64,000 nt of DNA from Octopus vulgaris (lineage: Eukaryota): the NCBI GenBank assembly GCA_951406725.2, contig OX597814.1, forward strand, positions 77,190,001 through 77,254,000, given 5' to 3'. The position numbers were made by a program, and so were the translations under genes. The notes beneath the pieces were generated by a model that was not told the origin of the DNA, ran no database searches, and saw nothing but the letters and a program-made list of their open reading frames with translations. Positions 7,494 through 60,330 of this stretch are shown one piece after another; positions within the stretch are counted from its first letter, which is position 1; every line of letters starts with the position of its first letter.

Positions 7494-7500
<7 letters not shown>

Positions 7501-7814: not shown

Positions 7815-8297
7815 TATATATATATATAATCGTATTTGTATGGGTACATATACAAGCACACTCAAGTACAACTTCAGTGTGCTTGTATGTGAGTGAGAGA
7901 CCACGGTAGAGAATATCACTTGCTATCACTTATTCTCTCAATATAGGAACATAGAAAGCTACTAGCCTATAAATAGTCAATAGAGTGGAAAATTTAGCGT
8001 TGCGTAGACAATACATTACACTTAAAAATTCTATTGTAAATCATAAATGCAGATTAATATGTCCGGTAAAACGTTAGAAACGATTTATATTAATTAGTGA
8101 TTCAGACATTTATATTATTTTGCTCTTTTCTCATAATTCTTTTTGGATCAAACATAGTAGGGTATGAAACTGTGATCAACCTACAGTATACTGCTGGGGT
8201 GTTTTTGTACCCTTACGTTGTTCGATATTTCGCTCCATTGAGTTCAGTCCTTACTGGGATGATTAACTACTAATTTTTTATGCAATGTTAACCAGCT

Positions 8298-8462
8298 CGA
8301 ATATGCCAGTGGCAAGTTCGAACTAGTAAACAAGCCATTCGCTGTGTTTTGTCATGGAGAAAATTACACGCTGTAGCAAATGGTTAGATACACCTAAATC
8401 AGCTCGCAGCACCACTTATGAATGTCTTGTTTACGAGTTTGAACTTGCCACTGACATATTCG
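8298..8462. repeat. 43-bp imperfect inverted repeat (MITE-like core)
   Basis: 8298-8340 is the approximate reverse complement of 8420-8462. Confidence 0.75.
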
Positions 8463-10700: not shown

Positions 10701-10845
10701 TGCCCTACACTTGTCACCACTCCTAGCTAAAGTACCGTTAGTAATAAAGAAATATAATTTACTACGAGAAATAAATCGACTTTTAAATTGCTAAATCTAC
10801 CCCCTCTGTATCTGTCCTATCTGTCTCTGTCTTTTACGCCTTTAC

Positions 10846-10901
<56 letters not shown>

Positions 10902-10914
10902 CAGACAGACAGAC

Positions 10915-10987
<73 letters not shown>

Positions 10988-11129
10988 CAACTTATAAACA
11001 AGAGCAAAAGAAAAGAATTCTAATGCCAAATATGCCGAAAATAGACAAATCGCCAATAACCATATAATTTATCTCTATAAGCACGCGTCTCGAAGTAAGC
11101 CGATAGAAATTTCTTAAAAAATTCCGTTA

Positions 11130-11190
11130 TTATCGTATCGGTCCCAATTTCAGAGTTAATTCATAAGAATTTTCTCCTCGTCAGCGATAA
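11130..11190 (-). ncRNA. Type I hammerhead ribozyme motif (inverted copy)
   Basis: TTATCG-CTGACGA-GGAG..CTCT-GAAA-TTGGGACCGA-TA-CGATAA on the minus strand. Confidence 0.7.
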
Positions 11191-11438
11191 ATATGGTAAG
11201 AAATAAATGAAATACTTACTAATACCCATGGAAGAAGCAAACACTAAGTCATGAGCACACTTAAATATCCCAAATAAATCCAAAATAGAAATTCGCCAGC
11301 ACACCTCGAGGCACGTGCTGAAAACTCTCATAGAGAGTTTTGTATTTTGGATTTATTTGGGGTATTTAAGTGTGCTCATGACTTAGTGTTTGCTTCTTCC
11401 ATGGTATAAGTAAGTATTTCATTTATTTCTTACCGTAT

Positions 11439-11499
11439 TTATCGCTGACGAGGAGAAAATTCTTATGAATTAACTTTGAAATTGAGACCGATACGATAA
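11439..11499 (+). ncRNA. Type I hammerhead ribozyme motif
   Basis: TTATCG-CTGACGA-GGAG..CTTT-GAAA-TTGAGACCGA-TA-CGATAA; stem I TTATCG/CGATAA. Confidence 0.65.
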
Positions 11500-11720
11500 T
11501 AACGGAATTGTTTAGAAGTTTCTATCGGCTTACTTCGAGACGCGTGCTTATAGTGATAAATTATATGGTTATTGACGATTTGTCTATTTTCGGCATATTT
11601 GGCATTAGAATTCTTTTCGTTTGCCCTTGTTTATAAGTTGTTTATAAATTTAACCTTTAAAGGTATTTTTAATATGCTGGCCATCGATAGAGTTTTTTTC
11701 GAAAAATTTTATCCTATATT

Positions 11721-11785
<65 letters not shown>

Positions 11786-11788
<3 letters not shown>

Positions 11789-12450
11789 GAGGAGGTACCC
11801 CCAAAGCAACCGGATTCGTTCTCTGTGCAACAAGCCTGTTGTAGTTCAAGCTTCCGCAGCTAGAAGCCACTTGATGCCACCCCCAGGCATCAGTTTGCCG
11901 ACCGGTGTCGTCGCTTGAGGCCGTACTGTCATTTGGTATGTCTTTGTTTTGCAGTGTTTCTCTCCTGTTCGTGTTTTGCGATAGCTGAAACTAAGAAACC
12001 GTGTGATTCCGTGAAATTCTGTTTTCTGTTTGGGCAAACGGCGGCCAAAACAGTTGTCATGCTTCAAACAGCTTACAAGGGTGCTGCCATGAGCAAAACA
12101 CAAGTTTACGCTTTAGGAATGATCACCTGTTGCTTGAAGACCAACCTGGTTCAAGGCCAGCGTCGATCTCCCGAACGAATGAAAACATCACAAAAATTCA
12201 TGAACTGATCTGGGGGGGGGGGGCGTCGTCGAACAATTGACGAACTTGTTGATATGACTGGTGTGTCCTGGAGCTCCTGCCAACGAATTTTCGAATTTTG
12301 AGCGAGGAATTGCGAATGAAAAGAGTTGCAGCAAACTTTGTGTCTCGCTTGCTCACGGAAGATCAAAAGTAGTCACAACTGAATGCGTGTCGTGAACTGA
12401 AAGAACAGTTGGAAGTTGATCCGCACCTTTTTTCTGAGGTCATCACTGGT
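11786..12450 (+). mobile_element. 5' half of mariner transposon, same family as 9419
   Basis: TA-CGAGGAGGTACCCCCAAAGCAACCGG end following (TA)n. Remnants VKFCFLFGQTAAKTVVMLQTAY, RVAANFVSRLLTEDQK, EVITG. Confidence 0.85.
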
Positions 12451-12712
12451 ATATATATTTACCACACGTTCTCTTACTCTTGCTGCTCTCTCTCTCCGTC
12501 TTGATATGACATGTAATTGCTTTCATTTTGTTTCAAACTTCGTCTATCTATCATAAAATGAAAGTAAAAACATTTTTATTTTCATTTTGTGATAGCTATC
12601 ACGTAGGAAACGCCAACTCCTAGATCTTGCTTTTTGATTGCATAAAAATGATCAAGCTTTAAGCCTCTGTACCTCTATAATATATTCTGAAAGTTCTCTG
12701 GAATAAATGAAT

Positions 12713-12782
<70 letters not shown>

Positions 12783-12864
12783 GTGAAAAGGAACACACGA
12801 GTTGATATATATGAAAAAACAAGTCAAGATAGAAAATGCTAAAATAATTTTATAAAGAACATTT

Positions 12865-12902
12865 CAGTACCGGTTTCGGTCATTTTGAGACCTTTTCAAC
12901 TG
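12865..12902 (-). ncRNA. Degenerate minimal hammerhead in PLE pLTR
   Basis: CAG-TTGAAAA-GGTC..GACC-GAAA-CCGG-TA-CTG. Stems intact; core has two changes from CTGANGA. Confidence 0.5.
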
Positions 12903-13065
12903 TAACGATTAAATAATTAAATTTAGAAAAATTAAAAGAAAAGTTTTTTTAAAGGAATATTTGTATAGTGTTCAAATATAAGTGGCATTTTCCTTGTTTC
13001 TGCCTTTCTCTGTCTCTCTTGTTTGCACTTGTGTGTTCGAGGTCGTTGTGAACTCTTGGTTGTGT

Positions 13066-13483
13066 AGAAGAAGAAGAAGAAGAAGAAGAAGAAGAAGAAG
13101 AAGAAGAAGAAGAAGAAGAAGAAGAAGAAGAAGGAGGATGATGAGGAGAAGGGGTGGAAAAATTTGGGAGTGCCTTGATTGTTGTACTTTGAATGGTCAG
13201 CGGCAGCTAGCTGTTGCAGTTCAATTCAGGAGAATATTTCTATTGAAAGGTTTGTTTATGGAATTTGCGTAGGTGTTATACTAAAAAGCATTAGTGATAA
13301 AGTTAAGAAGTAGAAGGTGGAGCAGAAGAAGAAGAAGAAGAAGAAGAAGAAGAAGAAGAAGAAGATGATGTTGATGATGATGAAGAAGAAGAAGAAGAAG
13401 AAGAAGAAGAAGAAGAAGAAGAAGAAGAAGAAGAAGAAGAAGAAGAAGAAGAAGAAGGAGAAGATGATGATGATGATGATGAC

Positions 13484-13920: not shown

Positions 13921-15199
13921 ATGTGAATGAGTGGAAGTGGTGAGGTGTTGTATGACTTGAAGTTGGCACGCTATGGATTATAGCTGTGATTGGGGCTGAT
14001 TTGTAATGGATTCTTTGGAATGTAATATTTGCGTGTGTATTTGTGTTATTCTAAAGCTGAGGTGTATAAATCGTTTGTCGTAGACCCGTTAAGAAGTGGC
14101 CTGTATTTTGTAATAAAGAGAGTTTCTTTACTTATTCGTTGTCTCGAGGTTGTATCGTCCCTGAATTGGTAGAGGGGGAAAATCCTGAAGCCTGGTGTTT
14201 TGTTGTTGGCGCAAGTATCTATGTGTTGGCTGAAAGCCATTTTTCTGTTTTGGGGAATTTTTATCTGGGATCTGTGCAGGGCCATTCTTTTACGCAAACT
14301 ATTTTTTGTTTGGCCTATGTACTGCTCTTGACACCCAGAGCAGGTTAGTGTGTATATCAGGTTCTCCGAGGCACATGTGAAGTTGCTTTTCACTGTAAAC
14401 CGTTGTCCCTGTTTGAAGGAGAACTCTGATCCCTCAATTAGATAATCGCATATCCCGCAATTGGGTCTTCCACATTTTTTTACTGTCGGCTTCTGTGTTG
14501 AAGAGTGTATTCGGGCTTGTGTTAGGATACTTTTCATAGATTTAAGGTGTCTCTTGCTTTTTATGATCGTGTGTGTTTGGAAGATTGTGTTCATTCTGTG
14601 GTCTTTTTTTAGGAGGGGTATGTTTTCGAGGATGGTGCCGAAGGCTTCATTGTTGAGAGGGTTGTGTGTGGAGATATATATGGTAAGGCTTTTGGTCGTA
14701 AATTTTTCTTTGATTTGGGATGTCTCAGTTCCTGGATGTTAAGTTGAAGGGCACGTTGAATGCATATGTCAATAAGTGAACTCCCCTTCCTCGATATCCT
14801 CATTAAGAAAGCTAATAATGTAATAGAAACAGACATATATTATAAGCCTACAGATTCTAAGCAATATCTTCCATTCAATTCATGCCACCCCAGACACACC
14901 AGAATGAATATCCCCTTCAATCTAGCAAAAAGGATATGTACTATAGTTTCTAATGCAAACACCAGAGACACACGTCTACAAGAACTAAAAGATACCCTCA
15001 TCACCAGCACGTTGAATGCATATGTCAATAAGTGAAGGTGGGTAGTTCCTGGTGATGAGGGTATCAAGCACTTTCTCCAAAAGAAACTACCCTTGCTTCC
15101 TTTTTTAAGTTGTGTCAAGTAGATGAAGATGCAAGAAAGCAAGAAAACACCTTTACACACATCACCCAAGAGTTACACCTGGAGAAACAATAAATAGCA

Positions 15200-19189: not shown

Positions 19190-19865
19190 GTTGTTGTTGT
19201 TGTTGTTGTTGTTGTTTTTGTTGTTGTTGTTGTTGTTGAAATTAATAGAGGCCTAGCTGACAATTTTTTTGGGGGGAATAGAATCCTAAACTATAAGTTA
19301 GTGGTAGACATTCGATTTACTTCCTTACTGCTCCTGATAGACATGTCCATCTCTCAGTTTCTTGGACTGTATTCTTAATGCATAAACCGATTTTGTGAGC
19401 GTAGCAGACTTAATATTTTGTCAAATTTAACACTACCACCAAACCCTGAGAGTCTTGGCAGGTCTACGCTAGTGCTAACTTTTGGGCCTTGTCACTAGTT
19501 TGAACATACTGTCTACTCACCAGTTTTGGATGTTCTCGGTAAAAGCTCAAAGCTGTAAAATATTCAGTTTTCAGTTAGTCTATTACTTATGGAAAAATTA
19601 GAACTTTAAGAGCCGACTTATAAACTTTCCTTGTAGAATGAACATTAATTAAATTGAAATACTATTCAAAGTGCGCACCAAAGACTATAGAAAAAGGCAG
19701 GTTTCAGCCAAACTATTAAATGTACATAAAAGTAGTTAGCATCAACACATTTGTCACAACGAATACACTTGAATCCAATTTTGTTTTTGTTTTTTTGTTT
19801 TTGTTTTTTTGCAGTATATGTTAACTGTGTATAATATTTTCTGTGATATCTTCTTAATTCAGCAG

Positions 19866-20632
19866 ATGAAACTACAGAAAGTGTCATGAATCCATGTACA
19901 ACTGAAAATGTTGAAGCAGGAAGATTCTATTTCGCTCATCCAGACCCTAGAAAGTACATTAGATGCACTGAATGGGGTACATTCTCCGTGATGTTGTGTG
20001 CGCCGGGTACAATATGGTCACAGAGTGTCACTGAATGTGTTAGAGAGAACAGCAACCCGCTAACTAACGATAACACTGAAGCAACCAAAGACTCGGAGAC
20101 GTCTACCTCATGCACCATTCTTAAAAATAACCCATGCACGAAAGAAAATACTGACGCAGGTAAATTCTATTTTGCTCACCCAGATCCTCAGAAATTCATT
20201 CAATGTACGGAATGGGGTTCATATTACGAAATGCCATGTCCTCTGGGCACAGTTTGGTCACAGATTGCCTATACATGCATTAGAAAAAGTGGAAACAAGA
20301 TGAATGAAGATAGCACAACAGTAACGTCTCAAGGCACACAAATGATCCTACCCACACTTCTTAACAACAACCCATGCACTAAAGAAAATATTGGCGCTGG
20401 TAAATTTTATTTCAGTCACCCAGACCCAACAAAGTTCATTCAATGTACGGAATGGGGTTCATATTATGAAATGCCATGTGCGCCGGGCACAGTTTGGTCA
20501 CCGATTGCCTATACATGTATTCATAATTTCATAAAATGTAACAGTAGAAAAGAAACTACCCCAGCACCCAGCAGATCTTCCCTTCCATTCTCTTCAACAC
20601 TTAAATGGGTAACCAGAGGTGAACTTTCGTAA
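19866..20632 (+). CDS. Paralogue B exon 3: three 4-Cys chitin-binding domains; spliced protein ~415 aa
   Basis: CAGCAG tandem acceptor (exon start 19863 or 19866), phase 1 matching exon 2. Three NPCT.EN..AG.FYF.HPDP.KFIQCTEWG...C..GT.WS....C units. Stop TAA at 20630; AATAAA at 20890 and 20927. Confidence 0.85.
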
Positions 20633-21647: not shown

Positions 21648-21730
21648 GGTCCCGGGTTGATTCGGGGTTAACCACAGTAAATAAGGTACTCAATACATAG
21701 CAGAGTAAAATTAATTTATTATATAGAAGG

Positions 21731-21781
21731 AGCTTCTACAGGACTAGAACTGTTTCATTCAAGAGAAATCTTCAGGAAGCT
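21731..21781 (-). ncRNA. Type I hammerhead ribozyme motif (inverted copy)
   Basis: Reverse complement of 23915-23965. Confidence 0.7.
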
Positions 21782-22387
21782 AGTTAACAAGAATTGTATT
21801 GGCATTTATATATTTAGGCAGGGTTAAAGGGGTGTTGGTGGGGGACTTTTTGGGGGTAGGCATAGCGCAAAATATCATACTTGGGGGAGTGGTCAAGGAG
21901 TCAGTGTTAGATTAGATAGAAGAATAAATAAAAAAATAAAAAAATAAAAAAATAAAAAAATCTATATATAAAAAAAAAAGGGGAATAGAGTTTTAGGTAA
22001 ATAAGGAGATTCTCACTTATACCTATGCACACATGTATACATACATACACACACATACAAACATATATACATATACATACACACATACATACACACACAT
22101 ATATATACATATATATACACTTACACATACATATACATATCTACACATACACATATATGTATACATACACACACTCACATGCATACACGTATACACACAT
22201 GTATATATACACACACGACCACACATACATATACGCACAGAAAAATATATATACACATACACACACATACTCACATACACGCATACACACACATATCCAC
22301 ACACACACATGCACACACAGCACACTAGTCCCTATATACACATATATATACACATACACACACATATACACACACACACATACATAT

Positions 22388-22461
<74 letters not shown>

Positions 22462-22791
22462 GTGTACCTATGCATACCTACACATACACATATATATATA
22501 CACATACAAATACAGACCCATTCCCTAATTTTAATTTTATTATCTTCGTTTATTACTTTTGTTATCTTTGGCCGCTTGGTCACAAACATCTTGGCTATGA
22601 CAGCCAGTCCATTTATCTGTCTACTGGAAAACAAGCACTCATTCACTCACGCACACTCTTTAGCACGTACACGGATGTATGTATGTGTATGTGTGTATAT
22701 GTATGTATGTGTATGTGTGTATATATATGTATATGTGTGTGTATGCGTATGTGTGTGTATATATATGTATATGTATATGCGTATATATATG

Positions 22792-22834
<43 letters not shown>

Positions 22835-23243
22835 ATTTGTATGTAGGTGTATATGTATGTGTGTGTATTTATATTTATTGGTGTATATATATAGACTAGC
22901 CTTCTAAGAGTGTAGACATGAATCTGTAGGTACGCGTACGTATGTGTATATACGTGAATGTATGTAGATGTATGTATGTATTAATATAACGCGTGCGTGC
23001 GTGTATGTGTATGAGTGTACGAATGAGTGAGTGTACGTGCTAAAGAGTGTGCGTGAGTGAATGAGTGCTTGTTTTCCAGTAGACAGATAAATGGACTGGC
23101 TGTCATAGCCAAGATGTTTGTGACCAAGCGGCCAAAGATAACAAAAGTAATAAACGAAGATAATAAAATTAAAATTAGGGAATGGGTCTGTATTTGTATG
23201 TGTATATATATATGTGTGTATGTGTAGGTATGCATAGGTACAC

Positions 23244-23313
<70 letters not shown>

Positions 23314-23914
23314 ATGTATGTGTGTGTGTATATGTGTGTGTATGTGTATATATATGTGCATATAGGGACTAGTGTGCTGTGTGTGCATGTGTGTGTGTGG
23401 ATATGTGTGTGTATGCGTGTATGTGAGTATGTGTGTGTATGTGTATATATATTTTTCTGTGCGTATATGTATGTGTGGTCGTGTGTGTATATATACATGT
23501 GTGTATACGTGTATGCATGTGAGTGTGTGTATGTATACATATATGTGTATGTGTAGATATGTATATGTATGTGTAAGTGTATATATATGTATATATATGT
23601 GTGTGTATGTATGTGTGTATGTATATGTATATATGTTTGTATGTGTGTGTATGTATGTATACATGTGTGCATAGGTATAAGTGAGAATCTCCTTATTTAC
23701 CTAAAACTCTATTCCCCTTTTTTTTTATATATAGATTTTTTTATTTTTTTATTTTTTTATTTTTTTATTTATTCTTCTATCTAATTTAACACTGACTCCT
23801 TGACCACTCCCCCAAGTATGATATTTTGCGCTATGCCTACCCCCAAAAAGTCCCCCACCAACACCCCTTTAAACCTGCCTAAATATATAAATGCCAATAC
23901 AATTCTTGTTAACT

Positions 23915-23965
23915 AGCTTCCTGAAGATTTCTCTTGAATGAAACAGTTCTAGTCCTGTAGAAGCT
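23915..23965 (+). ncRNA. Type I hammerhead ribozyme motif
   Basis: AGCTTC-CTGAAGA-TTTCTCTTGAAT-GAAA-CAG..CTG-TA-GAAGCT; stems I and III pair perfectly. Confidence 0.7.
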
Positions 23966-23976
23966 CCTTCTATATA

Positions 23977-24019
<43 letters not shown>

Positions 24020-24743: not shown

Positions 24744-25572
24744 AATGAGATAGGGGTTGAAAATTCAACCCACCATGGGATAATATATATCCAATATACT
24801 GCTAGATAGGTACCCAACAAAATTGATACATAGATGTTAGAAATTGCCAAGCAATCAGTTCATCTATTGTATTAAATGGGTAAGGGTAATAATATTACCG
24901 TAAATTAATACTACAAAATTAGAGAATGGAGAAACATACTTAAATCAATAAAACATCAACTATCCGATGATACTCAATCCATACTTTAATACACCATTAC
25001 ATAGGAGTAAAGGCAATATATAAAATGAAATGAAATGAGATATACAGTAATAGTAAAAGTAAAAAGATAAAGAGATATAAGTAAAAAATTACAAATACAA
25101 TATGCAAATAAATCAAAACTGACAGCTGTTTCGGCAGTGAGGACAGTCATACCTCATTTAACCTATAAGCCATAAAGGCAGGTATAAATGAGGCATTAAC
25201 AAAGATGCCCCACGGCCTCTTCAGAGAATTAAATTAAATTTGTTATAATAGTGAAAAATATTATATAATCATATACATATAAATATAAAAATATAAAAAA
25301 GTAAAATATAAAAACTTATACATCATAATGCTACACTTGTATAATATAATACACATTTGTACAAAAAGGAAGGTAGCCAGAACAAAATAAAACAAAATAT
25401 ATAACAGTGTATATATAATATTAATAAGTACCGATATCATACATATTTAGCTAATAGTTTTTTTTATATATAAAAAAAAGGGCTAACACATATGGAGATG
25501 AAAAATAATAATAATTAAATCCGTGGTACAGTTCATAAAATTCTAAAGCTATAAAAGTTAATAAAAATTACT

Positions 25573-25609
<37 letters not shown>

Positions 25610-28600
25610 GTAATAATAATAAAAAATAATAAAATAGATACAGTTAAGTTATCACCAAGTCCATCCTTCCAAGATCGAAATAACTATGAGTTAAGAAATG
25701 CTGACCACTAGGTAAAGAAAATTTAGATTAATTCGATTGGCTATTGGTTTGAAATTTAAATCACAAAAGAAAATTATACGGTTGGTTAGTCAGGGAACGC
25801 CAATATTCACACACGCATCTACAGATCAATCGCACATACACACATAGTTATATGTATATACATACACTTGTACATATACATAATCATAAGCAACAGCTAA
25901 CACTTAGATAAAAAAAAATAGGGAAGCAACCATGCTAACACTAAGTCCTTCAAAATTATAACTGAGCCTCAATAACAAAAAAAAGAACCATCCATGCATT
26001 CTATAAAATATTTAATTAAGATATAAATGTATTTTTAAATATCAGTATGTTACTAATTCAGATAATTATTTCATGGGTAACTTAAAATATATAACACCGG
26101 TTTGATGCAGAGTAAACATACGGTTGTTAGGTTTATCGTAAGTTTGTTATGATTTAAAGTACGCTAAATTATAAAATATAAAATATAAAATATATTAATT
26201 TAGATATTATAAATAAGTCACTTATTAACTTAATAAATATTGTGCCAAAATATACCAGTTTAGGCAATAAAAAATAGAGGGGGAAGTATTAATGTAAACG
26301 CTTATGAGAACATCACAGAAATTTCAAATAAATTTTATATTATAAAGACTTAATATGAAAAGAGATAAAATAAATAAAAAGGAATAAATACGAAGGAATA
26401 AATACGGTTATACACATAATTATAAGTACAAACTAGTATATATGTATTCATATATTATTAAAATTAAATAAAAATAAATGATAGATATGTATGTATAAAA
26501 CTACACCAGTATAAGTAAATAAGTAAAGAATAAATAGGTAACAAATTAAATGACTTGATATGTATGTAAACATCCACACTTAAATATGCAAATAAATAAA
26601 TAAATATAAGACTAGATGCAAATATTGATAATATTACAATAAAAATGGGAAATAAATAAAAATAAATAAAGTGAATATATATATTTTATATTGTTGAAGG
26701 TAAATATGTATGGAAGGATAGTTTAAAGTACAGATCCAGAGGACTATAGATATAAACTAAATATATGAAGCTGGTAACAATTATAAAGCAAAATGCATGT
26801 AAATGAGAAAATGAAAAAAATGAAAAAGGTTTATCAGTGAATAGCATAAGATACAAATTAAGGTGAGTACAAAAAGACCAAATATATAATATAATAAAAA
26901 CCTTCCAAATCAGCACATACAAAAAACCATAATCTCAACCTAAACCCACCAAACTCACAAAAGGCTCTCATATATTACATATTATACAATATCATTACAT
27001 TATCCAGAGCTAGGTATCTAACCAAGATATACATATATACTTTGCAATATACTATGCAATATTGGAAAACTTCAAAAATCACACATTACAAGGCAAATAC
27101 CAAAATGAATATGTTATTTTATGTCATATTGCATTTCTCTTAAAAAAAAAAAACAAACAAAAACCCACATACAAAAACCAAGAAACCAATAATACTAGAC
27201 ACATCCAATTAGTTATTATACAAATGTAGCTATAAAAATTATAAAATTATGAAATTTATAAATTGTATACTTTAGAATTATAGAAGACCACAGGTATATT
27301 TAGTTAAAGAAGGGAATTAAAAAATTGATAATAGTGGAAGTGCTAAGTTCTATTTGAATCTAGAAAAGGTGAACGGTAGTCTATGAATACAAAAGAAGTT
27401 TTTCTCATTAATGTTGTTAATAATTTGCCGACCCGCTTTAATAATGAAGAAAATTTCATTAATACATAGAGAGCATTTTTTATTTTTTCCATTATACACA
27501 GGTGCTGAAGTTAGTATTTTCCAGTTTAATCTAAAATCTAAGTTCTTACTTTTAAGTTCCCAAATATATGCACTTAGCCCTGTAGAGTACATTCTATTTT
27601 TATTCCTAAAAGTATATCTATGATAATTCCATCTTTGTTTTATGCTATTCATAGTTGCCCCGATATACACTCTACTACTCAATTGTGTATCTACAGTGCA
27701 TTGGTAAACTACCTCCTTCCTGAGGCATTGATTACCAAATACACATTTATTTTCATTTCTGCAATTACAAAGATTAACAGAATGAGGAAATCTAAGATTG
27801 GGCACCACCCCTATACTACTATTCACATTATAAGTGTTACAATTGTTATCATCATCCAAACCCAAAATCAACGAATGAGTTAATTCACCATTATCGGCTA
27901 TATTCCTATCACTAGTACTAGTATTGGTAGTAGTGGTATGATCTATTACATTTATATTATCTCTGACAGGTATGGTGCACTCATTATTAGTAAGGAGGTT
28001 GCTCCCATTTGTTCCAAGAAAATTTCTATTCCTATTATTAATGAAGGGGGCAAGTTTTCCTGGTCTAAATTCAATTTTCTATTCTTATAGAAGTGATCCA
28101 GTTTCTTGTTATTAAAAGAGGAGATGATGGTGGCTAGATTATGAGTAATGCTATATCCCACTCTAACAGTACCGTTGTTAATTAAAGGACTAAATTTATT
28201 CCTATCCTTACCAAAATGCCTAAAAATAATATTATGCAAAGCTCTCACTATGTTTGTTTTAATCTGCATTGCATACGGGATAATCAACCAAAGAGTATCC
28301 TTATCAGAATTAGGATTGCCTATAGAATTAATGTTATTTGTAAAAATCCTATTCGTAGACCAACTCATAGGATTACTATTCTTACCACTGTCATTGTTAT
28401 ATCTATCTATATCAATATTACCATGGTTATTGCGCAAGTAAACTTTACCATTATCATGTCTACCATAAGTTTTAATTCGTATATTATTATTAATATTACT
28501 ACTACTACTCGTATGTTTAGATCTATTTGAGCTACCGTTCACCTTTCCAAGGTTAACGTCACTTCTACATTTATTATAGGTGTTATCATATATTCTGTTT

Positions 28601-30256
28601 TTACTATTCTTATGTATATTGTTGATTATCCTAAATCTATTTGTGTTGTTCTTGATAGTTCTACCTCCATTAGGGGGTTCCCCTTAGGTATAAACCAAAT
28701 CTTACTTTTATATCCTGCCTTAAGTAATGCTGCATTGTATCTATCACAGTGTTTGTTAAAAATTTCCTCGTTTGAGGATAAACTAGAAATTCTTTGACTA
28801 ATGCTACGCACTAGTGCATTTTTAATTTGAGGGGGGTGATTACTAGAACGGTTAATGTATATTAGGTTAGAATTAGGTTTAATATAGGGTTCATGTAAAC
28901 CATTAGTAATGTTACAATTAACATCTAAATAATTAGCAGAATAATTTTCACTTTCAATGATAATAGATAGGCCGAAGCTTTTAAAAAATTTGTTTATTCT
29001 TTTTTTCAGAAGATCTAATCTCCTATTTGATGTATTCCTAACACAAAATAAGGCGTCATCCCTGTATAATCCGCCTTTTAATTCAGGGAATTCCCTACTA
29101 AAGTTATCTAATAGATACATCCCAACTAGATCAGTCACCTCCGCTGAGTCCGGCGATCCCATTGTGATATCGAACAAGTTGGGTGTGTCCTTTCTAGCCC
29201 AAAGTTTATTATCAAACTCTATTAAAGTTTTCCTGGCTGTTAGTATAACCTTAATCTCCCCCATACTTAATTTAGTGTGTTTTCTAGCAAAAATTAAGGA
29301 CTTATTTAATATAATAGGGTTAATTGAAGTGTAATAATTCTGTATATCGAATTGTATAAATTTATTTCTATTATAGCTAAAGTTGTTACTGTCACAGACC
29401 TTAATGGCAGAAAACCAATCCAAAGCACCCTGAGTATTCTTCCAAAGGTTTAGTTTGATTTTATTGCGGATGGTGGGTAGATATTTATCTAGAATGAGTT
29501 TACTTAGTCTGCCTAAGTCAGATTTAGTGGGGCAAATTAATCTGACCTGTGTGTTTCCAAGAAAATTCTCTTTATGATCCTTTAGTGTAATTCTCGGTCT
29601 GGATGGGGTGTAGGGTTCCGTTTTTTCTTCTAGGTAGTAGTCAAATATGATTCCTCTGATCTCCAGGTTCAGCTTTCTAAGTGTACTAGAAGGTACTACT
29701 TTGTATTTCTTGGTTATTTCCTTGTGTAGAAGATCATGATATGCAGTAATGTCAATGTTGTAGATGTTGTTAGTTTTGTCAGAATGTGTTAGAATGCCGC
29801 TCTTACCTTTGAGAGTTCTAATTAAGTCTTTCAATTCTCTTTGGTGCGGGTTATATCTTAAAGGATGATTTCTAAATTTTATGTTTTTTACAGTCTCCCA
29901 TAGTTCTTGTTCAAAATTGTCTAGATGTATATTTGGTGGAGGAGACTTTCTAGATTTAAATGTAGTGCTAATGCCTCATTTATACCTGCCTTTATGGCTT
30001 ATAGGTTAAATGAGGTATGACTGTCCTCACTGCCGAAACAGCTGTCAGTTTTGATTTATTTGCATATTGTATTTGTAATTTTTTACTTATATCTCTTTAT
30101 CTTTTTACTTTTACTATTACTGTATATCTCATTTCATTTCATTTTATATATTGCCTTTACTCCTATGTAATGGTGTATTAAAGTATGGATTGAGTATCAT
30201 CGGATAGTTGATGTTTTATTGATTTAAGTATGTTTCTCCATTCTCTAATTTTGTAG

Positions 30257-30261
<5 letters not shown>
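24740..30261 (-). mobile_element. Penelope-like element (Naiad/Nematis-type by inference): RT, Asn-rich linker, GIY-YIG, long AT-rich 3' region, pLTR, and an inverted partial pLTR at the 5' end; inserted in (TA)n
   Basis: RT ORF 28626-29834 (KDHKENF, FIQFDI, ITMGSPD, LYRDD, NYLDV, SNHPP). Endonuclease 27350-27871 (CNCx5Cx5C, VVY..YIG). 29969-30261 is the reverse complement of ~24906-25198. Confidence 0.9.
25115..25230 (-). ncRNA. Hammerhead ribozyme motif with long branched stem II in PLE pLTR
   Basis: CT-CTGAAGA-GGC...(~80 nt hairpin)...GCC-GAAA-CAGCTG-TC-AG. Palindromic stem III; stem I weak. Confidence 0.6.
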
Positions 30262-30985: not shown

Positions 30986-31844
30986 GGAAATTGGCGAGCA
31001 GCTTGATAAAAAAAAATGCCTTCTGAAAAAGTGTTGAACATGCCGTCATGCGAAGAATTTATTAACGGAAAAAAGGAAGAACCAATTAAGCCAAATTTCG
31101 CCGCTGTAGCGTGATTAAAAAGGAAAACTTTGAATGTGACAAATGAAAATTTAAACCAATTCAAAATACGCTAGAGAGGGAGGGGTATGATTTAAAAGCC
31201 ACCCTCCCCTTCGATTTAATTGAAAACACAGTAAAAAAATAATTGTTTTTAAAAGTTTGAATATTAAAACCAAAAAATCAGACAAAGCATCAAGAGAGGA
31301 GGTCGAGAAAGGCTTACAACCAATATGGTCGGGCATTACTTTTATTACTAGAGGTTGCAAATTTACAACCATAATTGTTCACCTAAAAAGTGAAGAAAGG
31401 GCGAAGGAGAATTCGGTCAAACCTTTAAAAGCACCCGAAATAGTGCTCCTACCTACTTATTTAGGTAGACGTACCTCGAAAATCACAGTTGAGGAAATTC
31501 CACCGAAAATCGATGTGACATGGCTCTGCGCTGCTCTAATTATGGGCCTCGAGGAAAAAATAATAATTCTCGAGGCTACTAATAGTAGAGCAGCAACATT
31601 GGAAAGGCCAGGGGCTGGAAATCACAATTCAAGCAACCCAGTAAACTCTCGAAGAGATTGCAGAGAACAACGTTAAGGATGATGGTGGGGGTAAGAGGCC
31701 ACGATGCTTCGAATGTGGCGAAAAAGGCTACATTCGGGCAAATCGCCCCGCCCTAAAAGAAGAAGAAACAGCACCGCCAGCAAAGTCTCCAACAACACGG
31801 AAAACAAAGACGAATGGACTAACGTAACCAATAAAAAGAAGAAA

Positions 31845-32214
<370 letters not shown>

Positions 32215-32515
32215 AATAGAAAGAAAAAAGTCCCTAAAAGAAAAATTACCAACCCGCCCCTTCCACTTCCAGCTCCATCAGAAGAAAAACTCCCCTACTC
32301 GCAGACTCACACGACACACAAACGCCCCCCTTCAACCCAAACACGAACCAAAAAAACCTGTAAAATCTACCCCTCCCAGTCCCGAAAATTATTTCCCCTC
32401 CAAACTAGAAACGAGCTTGATAGCTGTGAATGCTAATAATCAATCATTATGGACAAATTAAAAAGAACTCCTACCGCGAACGAATATACCAAACATTACA
32501 GTATTCTTCCGGAAA

Positions 32516-39340: not shown

Positions 39341-39875
39341 TGGCTCTCAGTGGCTCTCGTGATCTTAACTGATTGGAAGTGTTATCATGTACATTGTTTT
39401 GTCTTGGTATAAAAGATGGGCTACAGCAAATATTCTGCTCAATACCACAGATTTGCTTGTTAGTTGTTTGACCTTAACCAGTTGAGCATGTCCCTTAGTG
39501 GCTGACGATATGTGCATCTCTGATCACGAGCAGAAGTAGTGGGGGAGCATCATAGCCATGTGTTGAGAGGGATTCTTTGGGGTTTGAATAGTTCACCTCT
39601 GGAAACATGGGTGGTTCTTTCAACATCCTTAGACAACCCTTATTCAGGGACCGTTTGAGCGGGATGGGCTACACAACCTGAAGAAAATTCTAACTGGGCC
39701 CCACCTGCAAGGTCATGTGCTGTTTATCTTGATATGAGATCACCATGTCGCGCACATATGGTTGTGATGCATGTGCCTGGTGTGCCTTTATCAGACGGGT
39801 AGTCATGATGGGTATATTGGGCTTCCTATATTTTACCCCAGTGTCACTTTGATGGCATGAACTGCTCTCTCACTC
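39341..39875 (+). mobile_element. Retroposon-like interspersed repeat ending in (AAT)n
   Basis: More GC-balanced ~530-bp block bounded by (AAT)n on both sides. Family not assigned. Confidence 0.4.
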
Positions 39876-39947
<72 letters not shown>

Positions 39948-42054
39948 CAACTGCTAATCAATCGTATGATCCTTGAGAACTGTCACAACAAGCGCAGAAA
40001 TCTCAGCACCGCATGGATTGACTATAAAAAGGCCTTCGACAGTATACCGCATCCATGGATCTTGAGATCGCTGGACATCTTCAAAATTTCCCCTGTGATT
40101 TCAAACTTCCTGAAGCACAATATGTCGTTGTGGAATACGAATCTCCAATTATACCACTCTAATGGAGTACTTGCCTCAGAAAATATAAACATCAACTGTG
40201 GAATTTTTCAAGGTGACTCACTTTCACCTTTAATATTCTGCATAGCCCTAATACCCCTTACAAGTGAATTAAACAGAACAGGGTATGGGTATAAAATTGC
40301 CAATAAAAAAATAAGCCATCTATTTTATATGGATGACTTAAAACTTTATGGTAAAGACAATAATGAACTTGAAGGCCTATTGCGCACTGTGAAAGCATTC
40401 AGCGATGACATCGGGATGGAGTTTGGACTTGAGAAGTGTGCCAAGGCCACTTTCCAGAAAGGGAAAGTGAAGACCACAAATTCAGTCGTGTTAGATGTTG
40501 ACACAGTCATAAGAGAGCTTGAGCAAGAACAAACATACAAATATTTAGGGATAAATGAAGGCTCTGGTATTCAGCATGCAAGCATGAAAGAGAAGATCAG
40601 GAAGGAATGTTATAGGAGAGTTCGTGCAGTCCTGAAATCTGAACTAAATGCACGTAACAAGGTGTTAGCTATAAATTCCTTAGCAGTTCCAGTTGTTACT
40701 TATAGCTACAATGTGTTGAACTGGAATATGAGTGAAGTAAAAAATATAGATAGGAAAATACGCAAGCTGCTGAGTTGTAATAGGATGCACCACCCAAAGG
40801 CAGACGTAGATCGCCTTTACCTTCCCAGAGCCAAAGGAGGACGAGGCCTGATACAATTTGAACTAGCTTACAAAACAACCACAATTGGACTGGCCAAATA
40901 TCTCGAAATATCGAATGACTGGATGCTAAAGCTCGTGGAAAATCACGAGAGACGAAAGAAGCTTCATTCTATCATCAAGGAAAGCAAAAAATTTGCTATT
41001 GATCTCGTGCAGGATACCCAAACAGAACAACCCGAGGGAAGTACGGCAATTATTGTTGCAAAGAAGGTGAAAATAATGGCAACGAAAAAAGCGCACGAGC
41101 AATTGGCTGATAGGTGGGAGGAGAAACCTCTGCACGGCAAATATGTGACCCGCAGCAAACAAGCTGATGTTGACCAGAAGCAAACCCATCAGTGGCTACG
41201 GAGCTCAGGGCTAAAAGCAGAGAGCGAAGGTTTCATCCTGGCTGCTCAAGATCAAAGCCTATTAACCCGGAACTACCAGGCCAATGTGATGAAAAATGGA
41301 GCAGACCCAAAATGCCGATTCTGCAACGACATGATTGAAACAGTGGACCACCTAATCTCTGAATGTAAAGTCTTAGCACCAGTGGAGTATAAATTAAGAC
41401 ATGACAGAGTTGGCCAATATCTCCACTGGCTAATAAGTCGGCATTACAATATCAAAACTGCCGACAAGTGGTATAATCACCACCCTGAGGCTGTAACTGA
41501 AGGAGAAAATGTAACCATTCTGTGGGACTTTCTAGTACATACAGACCGAACCATCAAGGCCAATAAACCAGATATTGTTGTGAAAGACCAAAACAATAAA
41601 GTTTGCTTATTGATCGACATGAGCATCCCCTGTGATCATAATATCTCAGCGAAAGAGTTTGACAAGCTCAGAAAATATAAAGACCTACTCATTGAAATTG
41701 AGAAAATGTGGCATCTCAAGGCGGTTACAATACTAGTGATCGTAGGAGCACTAGGAATGATCAAGAAGGGAACCGAAAATTATATGAGAATGATCCCTGG
41801 CTTACCATCCCTGCAAGAAGTGCAAAAGATTGTTTAACTGGTACATCACACGTATTGAGAAGAGCATTGTCGATGTGAGAACTGTTGCTGCTCATGTATT
41901 TTAATTTAACTTTAAAAAAAAATTTTTTTTTAAATGAACGAACTATTGAGTTTGGTTTAATGGCCTACCAATGTATACTATGAGTTTCTTTGCCCTAGGA
42001 GTCGGGAAGACACTCGGCAAGAAATGGAAGCAAATTTGAAAGAAGAAAAAAAAA

Positions 42055-48347: not shown

Positions 48348-50228
48348 TGTTGTATTTCGGGATGGTAATTCTTTTGCCAAATAAACACACGCACTATATA
48401 TTTTTTCTTCACTCGTTTATTACTTTTCTTATTTTATTATTTTAACTCCTGTTCATTGTCCGGAAAGTTTTCGTCACATAACTGTGACCTCTTCAGCGAC
48501 ACTTTTCGTTTTCGGATGTGTTCTTGCTCCACTTACTCTATTCTGTTTTTCTAAGGTCTGTATTCTTCTGTGCCCATGCGTTTGTGTCCTTGTTTGTGTG
48601 TGAGCGTGTGTGTGCTTGTGTGTGTATGTTTGTGTGTATGCTTGTGTGTGTGTATCATAGTTTTTAGTAGCAGTGTGGCCTTCACCTCAGCCCATCCTCT
48701 CCCCATTGTGCTGTTGCTGTCCCAAGACCCTCCAAAATATATAGCAAAAATAAATATGGTACAGTTCCTGTATTTCTCTGTGTACGTTTGTTCGCCCACG
48801 GTGTTGCCATTTTGGTTGTTGTTATTGTAATCGTTGTCATGGCCGCTGCTACTGTCGTTGTGTGTTGTTGTCATTATTATGGCCGTCCATGAAATTTCTT
48901 GTGTGTGTTTGTATGTGTGAATCGGTTCGCTTTATATGTTGTATATATCCATGCCCTTTATATAGTTTCATTCATTTATTTTATCTATCTCTATGTCTTA
49001 TACCTACAACTACCTACATTGGAGAGACTGTACGCAGCATAGTAGAGCGTATAGGTGACATTAGCGAGAGCTCAAAGAAGGGAAAAGCTCGTCAGTGTTT
49101 TACCAACATGCTCAGGCAGAACATGGAGGCTCGATTAATAAAATAGAGGTTAAAGTACTATCGACACATAGAAGTGACATGACATTTAGACAGATCACAG
49201 AGGCTACACACATAACAGTAGACAGACCGAGCCTCAATAGAAAACATGAGTGGAACAGTAACACCCACTACCGCCACACCACACCACAACACAACACACC
49301 ACAACACATGACTAAAGACAAAAGGGATGTGAAGTGAGAGGGAAAAATCGTAAATAATACACAGAAACACAGGGTAATACACACACAATAGATATTTATG
49401 CACTTACCTGTGATATGAGAAATGGAGATAGATGTATAAAATAAGTAAATATATAAATAGATAAATAAATATATAAATATATTTGTCACATACCTGTGAT
49501 AAATATAAGACATAGAGATAGATAAAATGAATAAATGAAACTATATAAAGGGTATGGATACATATAACATATGAAGTGAACCCATACACACACACAAACA
49601 TACACAAGAAATTTCATGGACGGCTATAATAATAACGACAACAAAATTAACAGCGACATTCAGCAGCGGCCAACACAATGTTGGCAGTAACAACAACAGC
49701 CACGAAGGCAACACCGTGGGCGAACACACGTACACAGAAGTATACAGGAATTGTACCATATGAATGAAGAAAAATATATATATTGGGGTCTTAGGACAGC
49801 AACAGCACAATGGGGGTGGGGATGGGGTTGAGGGGAAGGCCACGCTACTGCTAAAAACTATGATACACACACAATCATGCACACACACACACTCACACAC
49901 ACACACACAACCACACGCACGCACAAACAAACAAACAAACAAACAAGGACACAAACGCACGCGTACATAAAGATACAGACCTTAGAAGAACAGAATAGAG
50001 TAAGTGGAGCAAGAAGACATCCGAAAACGAAAAATGTCGCTGAAGAGGTCACAGTTGTGTGACGAAAAATTTCCGGACAATGGACATGAGTTAAAATAAT
50101 AAAATAAGAACAGTAATAAACGAATGAAGAAAAATATATATAGTGGTGTGTTTATTTGGCCCAAAAAACAAAAACATCCCGAAATACAACAATATCTGTT
50201 TCAACACACGACTTCACATCAGGAAACT
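48345..50228 (+). mobile_element. Penelope-like 3' fragment (GIY-YIG end) flanked by inverted pLTRs
   Basis: YIGETVR...H...RQITEA..I....PSLNRKHEW at ~49007-49255. 48345-~49000 is inverted relative to ~49505-50193. Confidence 0.8.
50035..50079 (+). ncRNA. Minimal hammerhead ribozyme motif (inverted copy at 48457-48501)
   Basis: TGTCG-CTGAAGA-GGTCAC..GTGAC-GAAA-AATT-TC-CGGACA. Confidence 0.6.
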
Positions 50229-56360: not shown

Positions 56361-57997
56361 CTCGATACACTATAGCGGGCTGGTAGAGTTCAAGAGGGGC
56401 GACGTCCTAGGAGAAGCTCTGGAGCTCGATGAGGGCTAGCTAGCCAACTTGTTTCAAAGAACTTTCGGGCCGGGGTACCTGGATAACTACCAGAAATCCC
56501 TGGCCTGACAGTGCTATATGAGTGCTTTACCCGTTCGGGATAAACTGTCTAGGTATGGAATATCTGTGCCACCGGCATGCTCAAGGTGCGGGCAGGATGA
56601 TGAAACCGTTCTGTACGCCCTTGTACAGTGCCCGGAGCTTTCGGGCTTGATAGTTTATGCAGAACACGTGCTATCGCATCTAGGAAGAGTATAGCTATCG
56701 GCTGAGTGCATGATTAAGGTTGCACCGCCACCCGGACTATCAAAGGAAGGTGAGGCATATTTTTATGCACAGTTGCAGTATTGAAAACTTGGATGAAAGG
56801 AGTCGCGACGGGAATATTCATCTTCGGCACATATTTCCTATATTACTTCAGATATCATCTGAAGAGCAAGATAGGGCTGGGGAAAAGAGCCTGTCGCGAA
56901 GTGTATACGGAAAAAGATGGAAGGAAGTTGAAAGGAAGTTGGGGATGAATGACCCTGCTTAATTCATCCGCAGTAAAGGCGTACAGTGTAGCCAGTGGAC
57001 TTCATGACTACACTGTAATGTCCTGTGCTTGTAATGTCCTGTGTTGTTCCCTCTATGTTGTGATATATTATTACCATAATAAAGAATTAATCTCTCCCAC
57101 ACTCGTGTTAGGTTCTTCTGGTTGTCGATTATTTGTGTTCATGAGTTCTGAGTCTATTAGATTTAGCAAACAGTTAAATTTAGATAAGACTAGAATAGAA
57201 GGGGCTTTAACTAAGGAATTAAATGATGCCATGGTGTCTGGCTCTGCATCCAGAGTGGCGGCGAAATCGGTTTTGTACCGACATCTCAAAGCCAAGCACG
57301 AAGGGTGTAGGGTCAGAGCTAAACTTCGTGCGGTGAGGAGAAAAAGTATTAACATTGTCGGATGGGCATGTCGTGGGGAGAGTCGGAGAGGCAGAGAAGC
57401 CTCTATCAAGTCTCTAACGGACGAACAGGGGCATTCGATGGAAGTACAGGAGGAGATGCAAAAGGTTTTTCACCAACATTTCGCTCGGTTGTTCGGGGAG
57501 AGCGACAGGCTGGACCGTGGGGAGCCCCTAAGAGACTTCCTCGCTGGTGGGCCGCGACTCTCGGCACGGAAGGCGGAATGTTGTGAAGGATCGATTACGG
57601 TTACGGAGGTTGAAGAGATGCTGGCTGAGTGCGACCAGGGACAAATAATCGGTGCTGGATGGTCTGCCCTTTGAATTTATTGTAGCATGTCGGACTTGTT
57701 CGAGCACTTGCTGGCCTGCGCCTCCACAAACTGGCATGAGAATGGAACGATCCCCAGCTTTATGAGTCGGGGAGTGGTGACACTGATCAGAAAAGACCCG
57801 AGCAAAGGGAATCATACAGTTCTATATTTAAGAGATGAGGAATTATGTACATTATGTACATTATTTACATTCGACCGATATTTGTCCTCATCTTTTTTGT
57901 TGTTAACACAACGTTTCAGCTGATATACTCTTCAGCCTTCTTCAGGTGTCTTGGGGAAATTTCGAACTTGGGTTCTCATTCCTAAGGTATTTTTCGA

Positions 57998-58037
<40 letters not shown>

Positions 58038-58154
58038 GCTCAGATCACTGCTTGGAATCGAACTCAGAATCTTGGGGTTAGTAGCCCGCGCTCTTAACCA
58101 CTACGGAAAGAGCAGGACATGCCCTCGTCCGTGAGAAAAAAGCCCACGGGAATA

Positions 58155-58221
58155 TGGCGTAGTGGTTAAGAGCGCGGGCTACTAACCCCAAGATTCCGAG
58201 TTCGATTATAAGCAGTGACCT
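58155..58221 (+). promoter_or_regulatory. tRNA-derived Pol III promoter (inverted partial copy at 58041-58105)
   Basis: A box TGGCGTAGTGGTTAAG, anticodon-like arm GGG-CTACTAA-CCC, B box GAGTTCGATT. Confidence 0.7.
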
Positions 58222-58312
58222 GAACAACAACAACAACAACAACAACAATAATAATAATAACAACATCGAAAAATACCTTAAGAATGAGAACCCAGGTTCG
58301 AAATTTCCCCAA

Positions 58313-58358
58313 GATACCTGATGAAGGCTGGAGGGTACATCAACCGAAACGTTGTGTT
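58313..58358 (+). ncRNA. Minimal hammerhead ribozyme motif (inverted copy at 57905-57950)
   Basis: GATAC-CTGATGA-AGGCTG..CAACC-GAAA-CGTT-GTGTT. The minus copy reads GACAC-CTGAAGA-AGGCTG..CAGCT-GAAA-CGTT-GTGTT. Confidence 0.65.
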
Positions 58359-60330
58359 AACAACAAACAAGATGAGGACAAATAGCCGTCAAATGTAAAT
58401 AATGTACAAGGGGAACCATATTAGTAATTTTAGGCCCATAATTCTACTTAATATAGGGTTAAAGAGTTTGGCCAACGTACTAGCTAAGGGGTTGGCGCGT
58501 GTCGCGGAGGAATTTGTTGAGAAGGTGCAGACATACGCCATCCCAGGCAGGTCGATCCAGGATAATCCCCATCTCCTTCGCTACATCTTAGAGAGGGTGG
58601 GTAAGTCATCCGGTAAAGGTGGGGCACTGGTCCATTTAGACCAGAGTAAAGCTTTTGATAGGGTAGATCACCAGTATCTGGCAGCAGACCTCGAGGCGAC
58701 TGGGCTAGGCCCAGATTTCCGTGGTTGGATCACTGCAATTTATGGCGGCATTAAATCTACAGTCCAGATAAACAGTTACCTGTCGGAGCCGTTTAGTATC
58801 GAGCTCTCGGTTTGTCAGGGCCCCCTGTCTCCGCTTCTGTACGTACTGGCTCTTGAGCCATTGCTGCAGAGGTTGGAGAGTTTGGGGTGTATCCCCAATG
58901 AACTAGGATGTGGTAAGTCTGTTTCTGCATATGCGGATGACGTCAACATCACCGTGTCTAATGAAGCTCAGCTAACTTGTGTAAAGGATGCAAGCAAAGG
59001 ATACAAACCGGTGGCAGGGGCAAAAATTAACACGCACAAGTCCATCGGCTTGCGGCTCGGCACTTGGAGTGGCAAGGCGATACCGTCTAGTGTCGTGGGA
59101 CACTAGACGGATGGTCTTGTTAAGTTGTTTGGAGTGTGGTTTGGACCGGATTCCCAGAAGGAGAAGAATTGGAGTGAGGTGGCAAACAGTGAGGCTGCCC
59201 TAACCCGGACTTTTTCTGGAAGGGTGCTATCCCTGAAAGGAAGGGTGGAGGTGGTGCAGGTGCATATTGCATCTGTTATCACCGTCTAAAGGTGGATTAG
59301 GGATGCCGTGGCTGATGATGCGCAGGCATGCGCCGAGACTGAGGCACCTCTGTCTCTACCTGGAGGGTGACCAGGTATGGAATCCGCTGGCAGAGACGTT
59401 CTTTCCGCGACGAGCCTCCTTGGAGGAGTTTACATCCAGTTTCATAAAAGGCGTAACCTGACGGAATGGCAAAAATATCGCCGACAAGCCCCCGTGCTAA
59501 ACCAAAAGGCGGGAAAGGCCGGCAGCGGGGGTACTACATTGATACTCTATAGCGGGCTGGAAGAGTTCAAGAGGGATGACGTCCTAGGAGAAGCTCTGGA
59601 GCTCGATGAGCGCCATCTAGCCAACCAGTTCCAATGAACTTTCGGGCCGGGGTACCTGGATAACTATTAGAAATCCCTGACCTGACAGTGCTATAGGAGT
59701 GCTTTACCCGTTCGGGATAAACTGTCTAGGCATGGAATATCTGTGTCACCGGCATGCCCAAGGTGCGGGCAGGATGATGAAACCGTTTTGCACGCCCTTG
59801 TTCAGTGTCGGAAGCTTTTGGGCTTGATAATTCACGCAGAACACGTGCTATCGCATCTGAGAAGAGTACAGCTATCAGCTGAGTCCATTATTAAGGTTGC
59901 ATCGCCACCCGGACTATCAAAGGAAGGTAAGACGTGTTTCTTATGCGCAGGTGCAGTACTGAGAGAGTGTATATGGAAAACTAGGATGAAAGGTGTCGCG
60001 ATGGGAACATTCATCTGCGGCCCTGGTTTGATATACTAATTCAGATACCATCTGAAGAGCAAGATAGGACTGGAGAAAAGACTCCTGTCGCGAAGTGTAT
60101 ACGGGAAAATATCGAAGGATGTAGAAAGGAAGTTGGGGGTGTCTGACCCTGCTTAATTTCAACCATAGTAGTACGGTGTAGCCGATGAACTTCACAGACA
60201 AAGTTTAAAAAATTTTTTAAATTATATATATCATCATTAAAACTCATTTATGAACCCATGAACACTTTTCGTTTGTGATGTCCTTACCTGTCCACTGTAT
60301 GTCCGATAATTATTATCATAATGAAGAATA

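Follow-up and report, generated by a model that had tools for sequence, protein, structure and literature searches.

The window analysed here is a stretch of 64,000 nucleotides (nt) of the Octopus vulgaris genome (assembly GCA_951406725.2, contig OX597814.1, positions 77,190,001 to 77,254,000), and positions below refer to it unless a locus number (L) precedes them. At 57817-58406 a near-palindromic insertion of ~590 bp interrupts the reverse transcriptase (RT) frame of a long interspersed element (LINE). A preliminary description, made from the sequence alone, had read it as a hybrid of a short interspersed element (SINE) and a retrozyme, with divergent RNA polymerase III (Pol III) promoters and hammerhead ribozymes. 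We find that each arm of the palindrome is the pseudo-long terminal repeat (pLTR) of an autonomous RT/GIY-YIG Penelope-like element (PLE) of ~2.7 kb, the locus itself being almost certainly a damaged, inverted solo-pLTR insertion of that PLE.

Anatomy of the insertion

As first described, the insertion is flanked by a degenerate 14-bp target site duplication (TSD; 12 of 14 positions identical), and once it is taken out together with one TSD the host RT frame, whose right half matches the RVT_1 domain, is regained. The inverted repeat consists of 57855-58105 and 58158-58408, 251 nt each and 90% complementary, and runs from the palindrome centre outward through a tRNA-Arg-like head, an (AAT/AAC)n microsatellite and a 144-nt core with a minimal hammerhead motif, in the order already reported (Table 1). 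A chance origin of the repeat is excluded, because its 18-mers have 936-13,182 genome copies vs 0 for reversed controls. The piece of open reading frame (ORF) at the centre maps ~185-215 nt beyond the tail end in the PLE ORF.

The family motif comprises a 5-bp stem I, CUGANGA, one extra A, a 5-bp stem II, GAAA and a palindromic ACGU replacing stem III. Motif and stems are present in the family majority, and 43 of 177 arms keep the motif fully intact. The minus arm has stem I GACAC/GUGUU, CUGAAGA, the extra A, a stem II with G-U at 10.1-11.1 and the palindromic ACGU; in the plus arm the motif places the predicted cut exactly where it had been put before. On free folding the minus arm and good copies form stems I and II, the plus arm misfolds, and the double-hammerhead form was not predicted. 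Rfam at E<=10 gave no hammerhead or tRNA on the element, nor did it call either on the whole window, so that hammerhead and head rest on motif and alignment, and cleavage in the family is a prediction; Rfam matches to miRNA, snoRNA and CRISPR repeats stayed below the gathering score and were dismissed as chance.

In the window copy neither of the two promoters nor either hammerhead is intact. The minus-arm A box is indeed clipped, by slightly more than the base or two proposed earlier: its first three bases read TTC instead of TGG. The plus-arm B box has A for C61 at 58208, a position at which 80 of 81 family heads have C, and the stem II mismatch of the plus-arm hammerhead is a G to A change at 58343. 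The related head-less copy noticed before near 31845-32214 lies at 31846-32214 within its own A-rich TSD (31830-31844 / 32215-32229, 13/15 identical) and is a 5' truncation, cut off before the head. An in-frame 9-nt repeat between core and tail (57840-57866 and elsewhere in the family) is present in one to four copies per insertion, and target flanks often resemble it.

Table 1. Parts of the insertion at 57817-58406 and the second family copy, in window coordinates
Feature	Position	Strand	Remarks
Left TSD	57803-57816	+	12/14 identical to right TSD
37-nt PLE tail	57817-57853	-	minus arm only; equals the lead sequence from pLTR to ORF of autonomous copies
pLTR core, minus arm	57857-58000	-	basis: L001 1228-1371
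Minimal type I hammerhead motif, minus arm	57905-57950	-	predicted cut between 57910 and 57909
(AAT)n microsatellite, minus arm	58001-58040	-	
tRNA-like head, minus arm	58041-58105	-	5'-clipped within A box
32-nt PLE ORF fragment at palindrome centre	58105-58136	+	encodes ERAGHALVR
tRNA-Arg-like head, plus arm	58142-58222	+	native quasi-palindrome GCCC-AC-GGG at start; predicted transcription start 58142-58148
A box, plus arm	58155-58165	+	TGGCGTAGTGG; intact
B box, plus arm	58200-58208	+	C61 replaced by A in window copy
(AAC)n(AAT)n microsatellite, plus arm	58223-58262	+	
pLTR core, plus arm	58263-58406	+	no tail after core; first in-frame family-ORF ATG at 58284-58286
Minimal type I hammerhead motif, plus arm	58313-58358	+	predicted cut 58353/58354; one stem II mismatch
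Right TSD	58407-58420	+	12/14 identical to left TSD
Second family copy	31846-32214	+	inverted tail and partial core, microsatellite, full core; no head

The autonomous element and its family

The coding PLE of the family was reached through a stray ORF piece in locus L030. The column majority of 23 copies yields an open frame of 842 codons, whose first Met lies within the core, 70 nt upstream of the ribozyme cut. An RT domain is recognised on L046 (Pfam RVT_1, E=5.5e-10), and the C-terminus is 42% identical over 127 amino acids to the GIY-YIG-bearing region of protein P0079; Pfam gave no match on the L055 C-terminus itself. The protein has 897 relatives at E<=1e-30, close ones at 60-72% identity, and is 40% identical to the Anolis protein P0091. 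A single ORF with RT, a C-terminal GIY-YIG domain (by similarity), pLTRs, a 37-nt tail and a minimal hammerhead motif are the features of PLEs with a C-terminal endonuclease (EN+), and the motifs together with the nearest relatives are suggestive of the Penelope/Poseidon clade.

The ORF is flanked by pLTRs. In 8 of 20 long loci head, microsatellite and core begin 24 nt past the stop codon, and in ~20 of 30 loci from the protein search the head lies 3' of the ORF end, most of the others being broken off earlier; core and tail stand directly 5' of the ORF in L034, L035, L042, L044, L056, L062 and L064. Arms of solo copies and of ORF loci have variants in common at similar frequency, a linked pair included (5 sites, all P>0.18). 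Since the head-bearing pLTR follows the stop codon, and since the variants are common to both kinds of arm, the head belongs to the pLTR of the coding element, and the short copies are therefore products of the PLE and not a separate SINE. A mobile, PLE-mobilised family with a minimal hammerhead inside its pLTR had been foreseen correctly, as had the linkage of the head to the pLTR, and it is the SINE/retrozyme hybrid that has to be given up. Several inverted junctions (L046, L104, L123 and 58105 in the window) fall in the early ORF, ~95-200 nt past the tail, where there is perhaps a further start or jump site of the RT.

The genome searched comprises 2.8 Gb in 227 contigs. An 18-mer from the core has 13,182 exact matches and is exact in 79 of 155 arms that were not chosen by it, from which we estimate ~26,000 arms or ~15,000 insertions. 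A census of the first 30 core matches on contig 1 made up 24 insertions, 18 with two inverted arms and 6 with a single one; 20 have a head, and neither ORF sequence nor head-to-tail arrays were found in any of the 24. Exactly one arm carries the 37-nt tail in 16 of the 18 two-arm insertions, and both arms in none. Across 35 two-arm loci the median TSD, obtained by a loose search, is 12 bp. Copies end 3' at the PLE core end or in the tail, and not in a LINE-type 3' end. Short copies outnumber ORF-linked ones by ~6 to 1, and the non-CpG divergence of the arms is 3-5% (3.2% for solo vs 5.0% for ORF-linked arms, a difference that may be a by-product of choosing solo arms via the exact 18-mer). A core lies downstream of 24 of 30 heads collected without bias, and 4 of the 6 that lack it end in the microsatellite. 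Sequencing runs of six organism labels, X1 among them, contain at least half of the sampled words of the arm; no RNA run is listed among these.

An independent SINE with the same head was looked for and not found, neither among these 30 heads nor among the 29 best head matches, 24 of which have a core within ~500 nt. The class of tRNA-derived SINEs was likewise set aside: the head has A and B boxes, but there is no non-autonomous lineage distinct from its partner. The class of non-LTR retrozymes was dropped on the lack of head-to-tail hammerhead tandems in the census.

Promoter, insertion and alternatives

Four lines of evidence suggest that the element is transcribed by Pol III, namely the tRNA-Arg-like head with its boxes, the clustering of 5' ends, a step in copy counts and the lack of T runs. 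Compared with 25 distinct tRNAs of its own genome the head aligns best with two tRNA-Arg (48-50 identities of 74), and both boxes, already taken to be of tRNA type in the window copy, are intact in the family (96 heads). It is not a tRNA gene, as ARAGORN calls no tRNA at the head and neither that program nor RF00005 recognises a cloverleaf. Concerning the 5' ends, of 30 heads collected without bias 24 start at -6..+8 relative to the tRNA-like start and just 3 extend farther upstream; a start at -6..+8 is also seen in 17 of 21 heads that have no partner head at the junction. The predicted start sits 7-13 nt 5' of the intact A box, the spacing expected of tRNA-type promoters. Exact 18-mer counts are 5,660 in the head, 936 just upstream and 956 at ~125 nt upstream, so that the sixfold fall at the head start is a step and not a slope.

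Runs of four or more T (T4+) are absent from the 2,633 nt of the majority sense sequence, where 4.2 are expected (base shuffle, P=0.004), or 2.9 under a synonymous shuffle (P=0.03). The TT odds of the family sense strand are 0.81 vs 1.04-1.21 in 8 control PLE ORFs, each of which has 2-12 T4+ runs; a metagenome scan gave 8 distant PLEs (34-45% identity), which served as controls only. One control PLE, L140, comes from the same genome and matches the element in base composition (T 23%, A 37%); its 2.1 kb contain 8 T4 runs. Natural copies (36,129 nt) contain 19 T4+ vs 422 A4+ runs, and natural fragments of the family ORF 5 T4+ runs vs 25 expected, with 65 vs 57 in all other ORFs. A tRNA-type promoter in an autonomous PLE, driving the whole element by Pol III, is on these grounds moderately probable.

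Several observations weigh against this promoter assignment. About 6% of the raw reads of three RNA runs under a different organism label (organism C) were mapped to L055, together with X1 contigs. The mapped reads (10,577, 7,498 and 7,106 per run) are equal in both directions and track copy number. Starts do not pile up at the head, nor do ends at the ribozyme site, though fragmented libraries would hide such stacks; the loose read ends at the head start merely mirror the genomic inverted junction. The short ribozyme-ended RNAs, circles and double-stranded RNA that had been anticipated find no support in the mapped reads, whose library type could not show them, and the read joints listed, from standard RNA-seq, include no back-joint in the pLTR. 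T4 scarcity is not unique to the family: six A-rich LINE ORFs of this genome are also poor in such runs, at 0-1.9 per kb (8 T4+ runs vs ~12 expected), and the synonymous-shuffle P of 0.03 comes from one family. Copies ending at the start site are expected of any PLE with an internal promoter, and the promoter of Penelope and Chlamys-3 goes with a spliced 5' untranslated region (UTR), i.e. is of the RNA polymerase II (Pol II) type (PMC8557442). No intact young copy of the family was seen at the divergence given above. The head also contains an upstream ATG-GCG-TAG, and an uncapped Pol III RNA would need to be translated in spite of this short frame. Leaders of plant viruses offer a parallel for the (AAC/AAT)n leader, and a role of the latter in translation is, by that analogy, speculation.

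The alternative that retains most weight keeps the PLE and its twin-primed insertion but assigns transcription to an internal Pol II promoter, the head being a captured SINE or tRNA relic that marks the start and the T scarcity a strand bias towards A. It would accord with known PLE promoters, which are internal, lie in the pLTR and come with a spliced 5'-UTR (PMC8557442). Capped RNA would also solve the problem of translation, some A-rich LINEs of the genome are T4-poor too, and RNA-seq reveals no discrete Pol III product. This explanation nevertheless has to leave aside that the start precedes an intact A box by just the spacing of tRNA-type promoters, that both boxes are intact in the family, and that the composition-matched L140 has 8 T4 runs vs 0, and we regard it as unlikely, though not negligibly so.

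Under the Pol III reading, the polymerase would start a few bases 5' of the head in the 5' pLTR, giving a transcript ordered as head, microsatellite, core, tail, ORF and 3' pLTR. The palindrome likely arises from reverse transcription primed on both nicked target strands. In vitro, the purified protein of an anole PLE introduces a nick into each target strand and extends from both. It begins cDNA at two internal positions of the RNA, one on either side of the tail, depends on ORF sequence farther downstream and copies mostly uncut RNA (PMC11167929); inverted 5'-truncated copies with one-sided tails are standard in PLEs (PMC8557442). In the octopus element, the RT/endonuclease would accordingly nick the target strands ~12 bp apart and start cDNA within the RNA at the tail end and at the core end. 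One cDNA per nick and start site would leave a TSD and two arms, just one of them with a tail. A cDNA primed at the 5' pLTR would comprise only ~300 nt, up to the RNA 5' end, and thus yield many short copies, whereas one primed at the 3' pLTR would include ORF sequence. Head-to-head joining of the two cDNAs would often take place at the GCCC-AC-GGGC quasi-palindrome; in the window copy the join would run through the 32-nt ORF piece. Such a palindrome is what PLE insertion usually leaves behind, and not a divergent promoter pair by design.

As regards the ribozyme, the core start (first 8 nt) is reached by 127 of 186 arms. Since most arms span the ribozyme site, their template was uncut RNA, and most inserted copies would derive from such RNA; the hammerhead would depend on a second copy, supplied by the opposite pLTR of the long RNA, or on the protein. 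Fossil 5' ends at the cut were considered and not accepted: of 59 arms truncated within the core, 10 begin at core 88-97 (P=0.07), and a duplicated pair, some small deletions and microhomology between head and core inflate this excess.

It is quite improbable that the short copies form a self-propagating SINE- or retrozyme-like family with Pol III heads of its own, served by the PLE in trans and spreading through ribozyme-cut or double-stranded RNAs. Their excess over ORF-linked copies, the promoters that they carry and the slight youth of solo arms speak for such a family, as does the pairing of a Pol III promoter with a hammerhead in SINE-like elements of Schistosoma (PMC6765202). However, the youth of solo arms may stem from exact-18-mer selection, the head is present in the autonomous element, and solo and ORF-locus arms share their variants. 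Furthermore, the ORF piece in the window copy indicates that its template was long RNA, head-to-tail arrays are missing from all 24 census insertions, and the short copies stop at RT start sites and do not include the ORF sequence farther downstream on which the anole protein depends (PMC11167929). That the sharp 5' boundary is an RT stop or joining point at the quasi-palindrome, with RNA supplied by host read-through, is very improbable: the quasi-palindrome is native and lies at the boundary, many junctions are perfect palindromes and reads come from both strands, but its hairpin has just 4-5 bp, 17 of the 21 arms that have no partner head at the junction still begin at -6..+8, and the A and B boxes and the missing T runs are left unexplained. 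The full explanation that combines an inverted pLTR pair, a Pol III promoter module and twin-strand priming is the one that we hold to be probable.

Neighbouring elements and related systems

The window contains further PLE sequences. Inverted 252-nt arms at 48402-48653 / 49883-50134, each with a different minimal hammerhead-like motif, enclose an apparent GIY-YIG C-terminal remnant, and the whole reads like a second PLE family of the same two-arm build with no evident tRNA head. A perfect 296-nt inverted repeat (24906-25201 / 29966-30261) lies beside an RT-like frame of 449 amino acids (ORF 29975-28629, minus strand) that is weakly similar to PLE and has no Pfam match; we take the element at 24906-30261 to resemble a recent Naiad-type PLE. 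At 14049-15002 there is a fragmented, partly inverted PLE whose protein is 53-66% identical to L140. Elsewhere, L134-L139 (e.g. L134 1990-4641) represent a young PLE family with intact ORFs and copies 98.4-99.8% identical, a C/T-rich sense strand, a long poly(T) right past the stop codon and a CA-rich 3' region.

Other non-LTR elements, presumably R4/Dong-like (39861-41834; L027, L050, L058), adjoin (AAT)n tracts, which may be their landing site; the one in L027 adjoins the microsatellite of the hammerhead PLE pLTR. Two further fold-back elements with long inverted arms lie at 10982-11646 and 21714-23982. Tandem coding repeats of 249 bp and 240 bp at 3186-6200 and 19850-20630 (plus strand) belong to a chitin-binding peritrophin-A (CBM_14) protein, and 6906-7023 (minus strand) is a decayed match to 5S rRNA of 31.7 bits, under the gathering score.

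Concerning known systems, the octopus SINEs OR1 and OR2 are of tRNA-Arg origin. Compared by description only, they are alike in this head, but that of the octopus PLE leads instead into a microsatellite and PLE sequence. OR1 and OR2 have been classed as CORE-SINEs (PMC4824008; PMC4758252).

With Penelope/Poseidon PLEs such as PAc of Anolis carolinensis the element shares an ORF with RT and C-terminal GIY-YIG, pLTRs and the inverted 5'-truncated copy with a 30-40-nt tail at one end (PMC11167929; PMC8557442). Unlike them, its pLTR starts with a tRNA-Arg-like A/B-box module and microsatellite, and its sense strand is without T4. PLEs with minimal hammerhead ribozymes have the same unpaired base ahead of stem II and palindromic positions in stem III, a ribozyme that overlaps the ORF start, and opposite-strand hammerhead pairs, reported at 100-700 bp apart (PMC4209133). 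In the Schistosoma elements Sm-alpha/Sj-alpha a Pol III-type promoter is likewise followed by a type I hammerhead, but these are non-coding, tandem and of canonical hammerhead form, whereas in the octopus a coding element has the module as its terminal repeat, the copies are inverted or single and the ribozyme is minimal (PMC6765202). The plant terminal-repeat retrotransposon in miniature Cassandra also has a Pol III promoter from a housekeeping RNA in its terminal repeat; there it is 5S rRNA, in true LTRs of a non-autonomous element with terminators in the LTR (PMC7215508), in contrast to a tRNA module and a 2.5-kb ORF without terminators. Animal non-LTR retrozymes are, similarly, short pLTR-derived type I hammerhead units that depend on PLEs, but are defined by head-to-tail tandems giving circular RNAs, and such tandems occur in 0 of 24 octopus insertions (PMC7229834; bioRxiv 10.64898/2026.07.22.740005). 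The literature searched, in its available portions and outside subscription journals, Repbase and Dfam, yielded no PLE with a tRNA-derived promoter, the cephalopod repeat papers PMC6962438, PMC8967140 and PMC13282606 included.

The most far-reaching version of our interpretation, for which we see only slightly better than an even chance, is a coding retrotransposon with a captured tRNA-Arg promoter, made by Pol III from end to end, with a terminator-purged 2.5-kb ORF translated from an uncapped RNA that has an (AAC/AAT)n leader; priming inside its 5' pLTR would have spread ~15,000 cassettes of promoter and ribozyme, SINE-like in appearance but by-products, over the genome. Known parasites with Pol III promoters (SINEs, Cassandra, the Schistosoma hammerhead repeats) are all non-coding; if true, a coding retrotransposon with such a promoter would provide a natural example of a long mRNA made by Pol III, and one could then test how an RNA that lacks a cap and contains a ribozyme comes to be translated. 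Should the promoter be merely a relic, the finding would be that of an ordinary truncated, inverted PLE copy. Owing to the sharp RNA start, the way in which PLEs insert can be read from their genomic copies: one tailed and one tailless arm, joined at the RNA 5' end, match the two RT start sites known in vitro. In genomes of this kind, solo pLTRs may also account for some of the repeats that are annotated as tRNA-SINEs.

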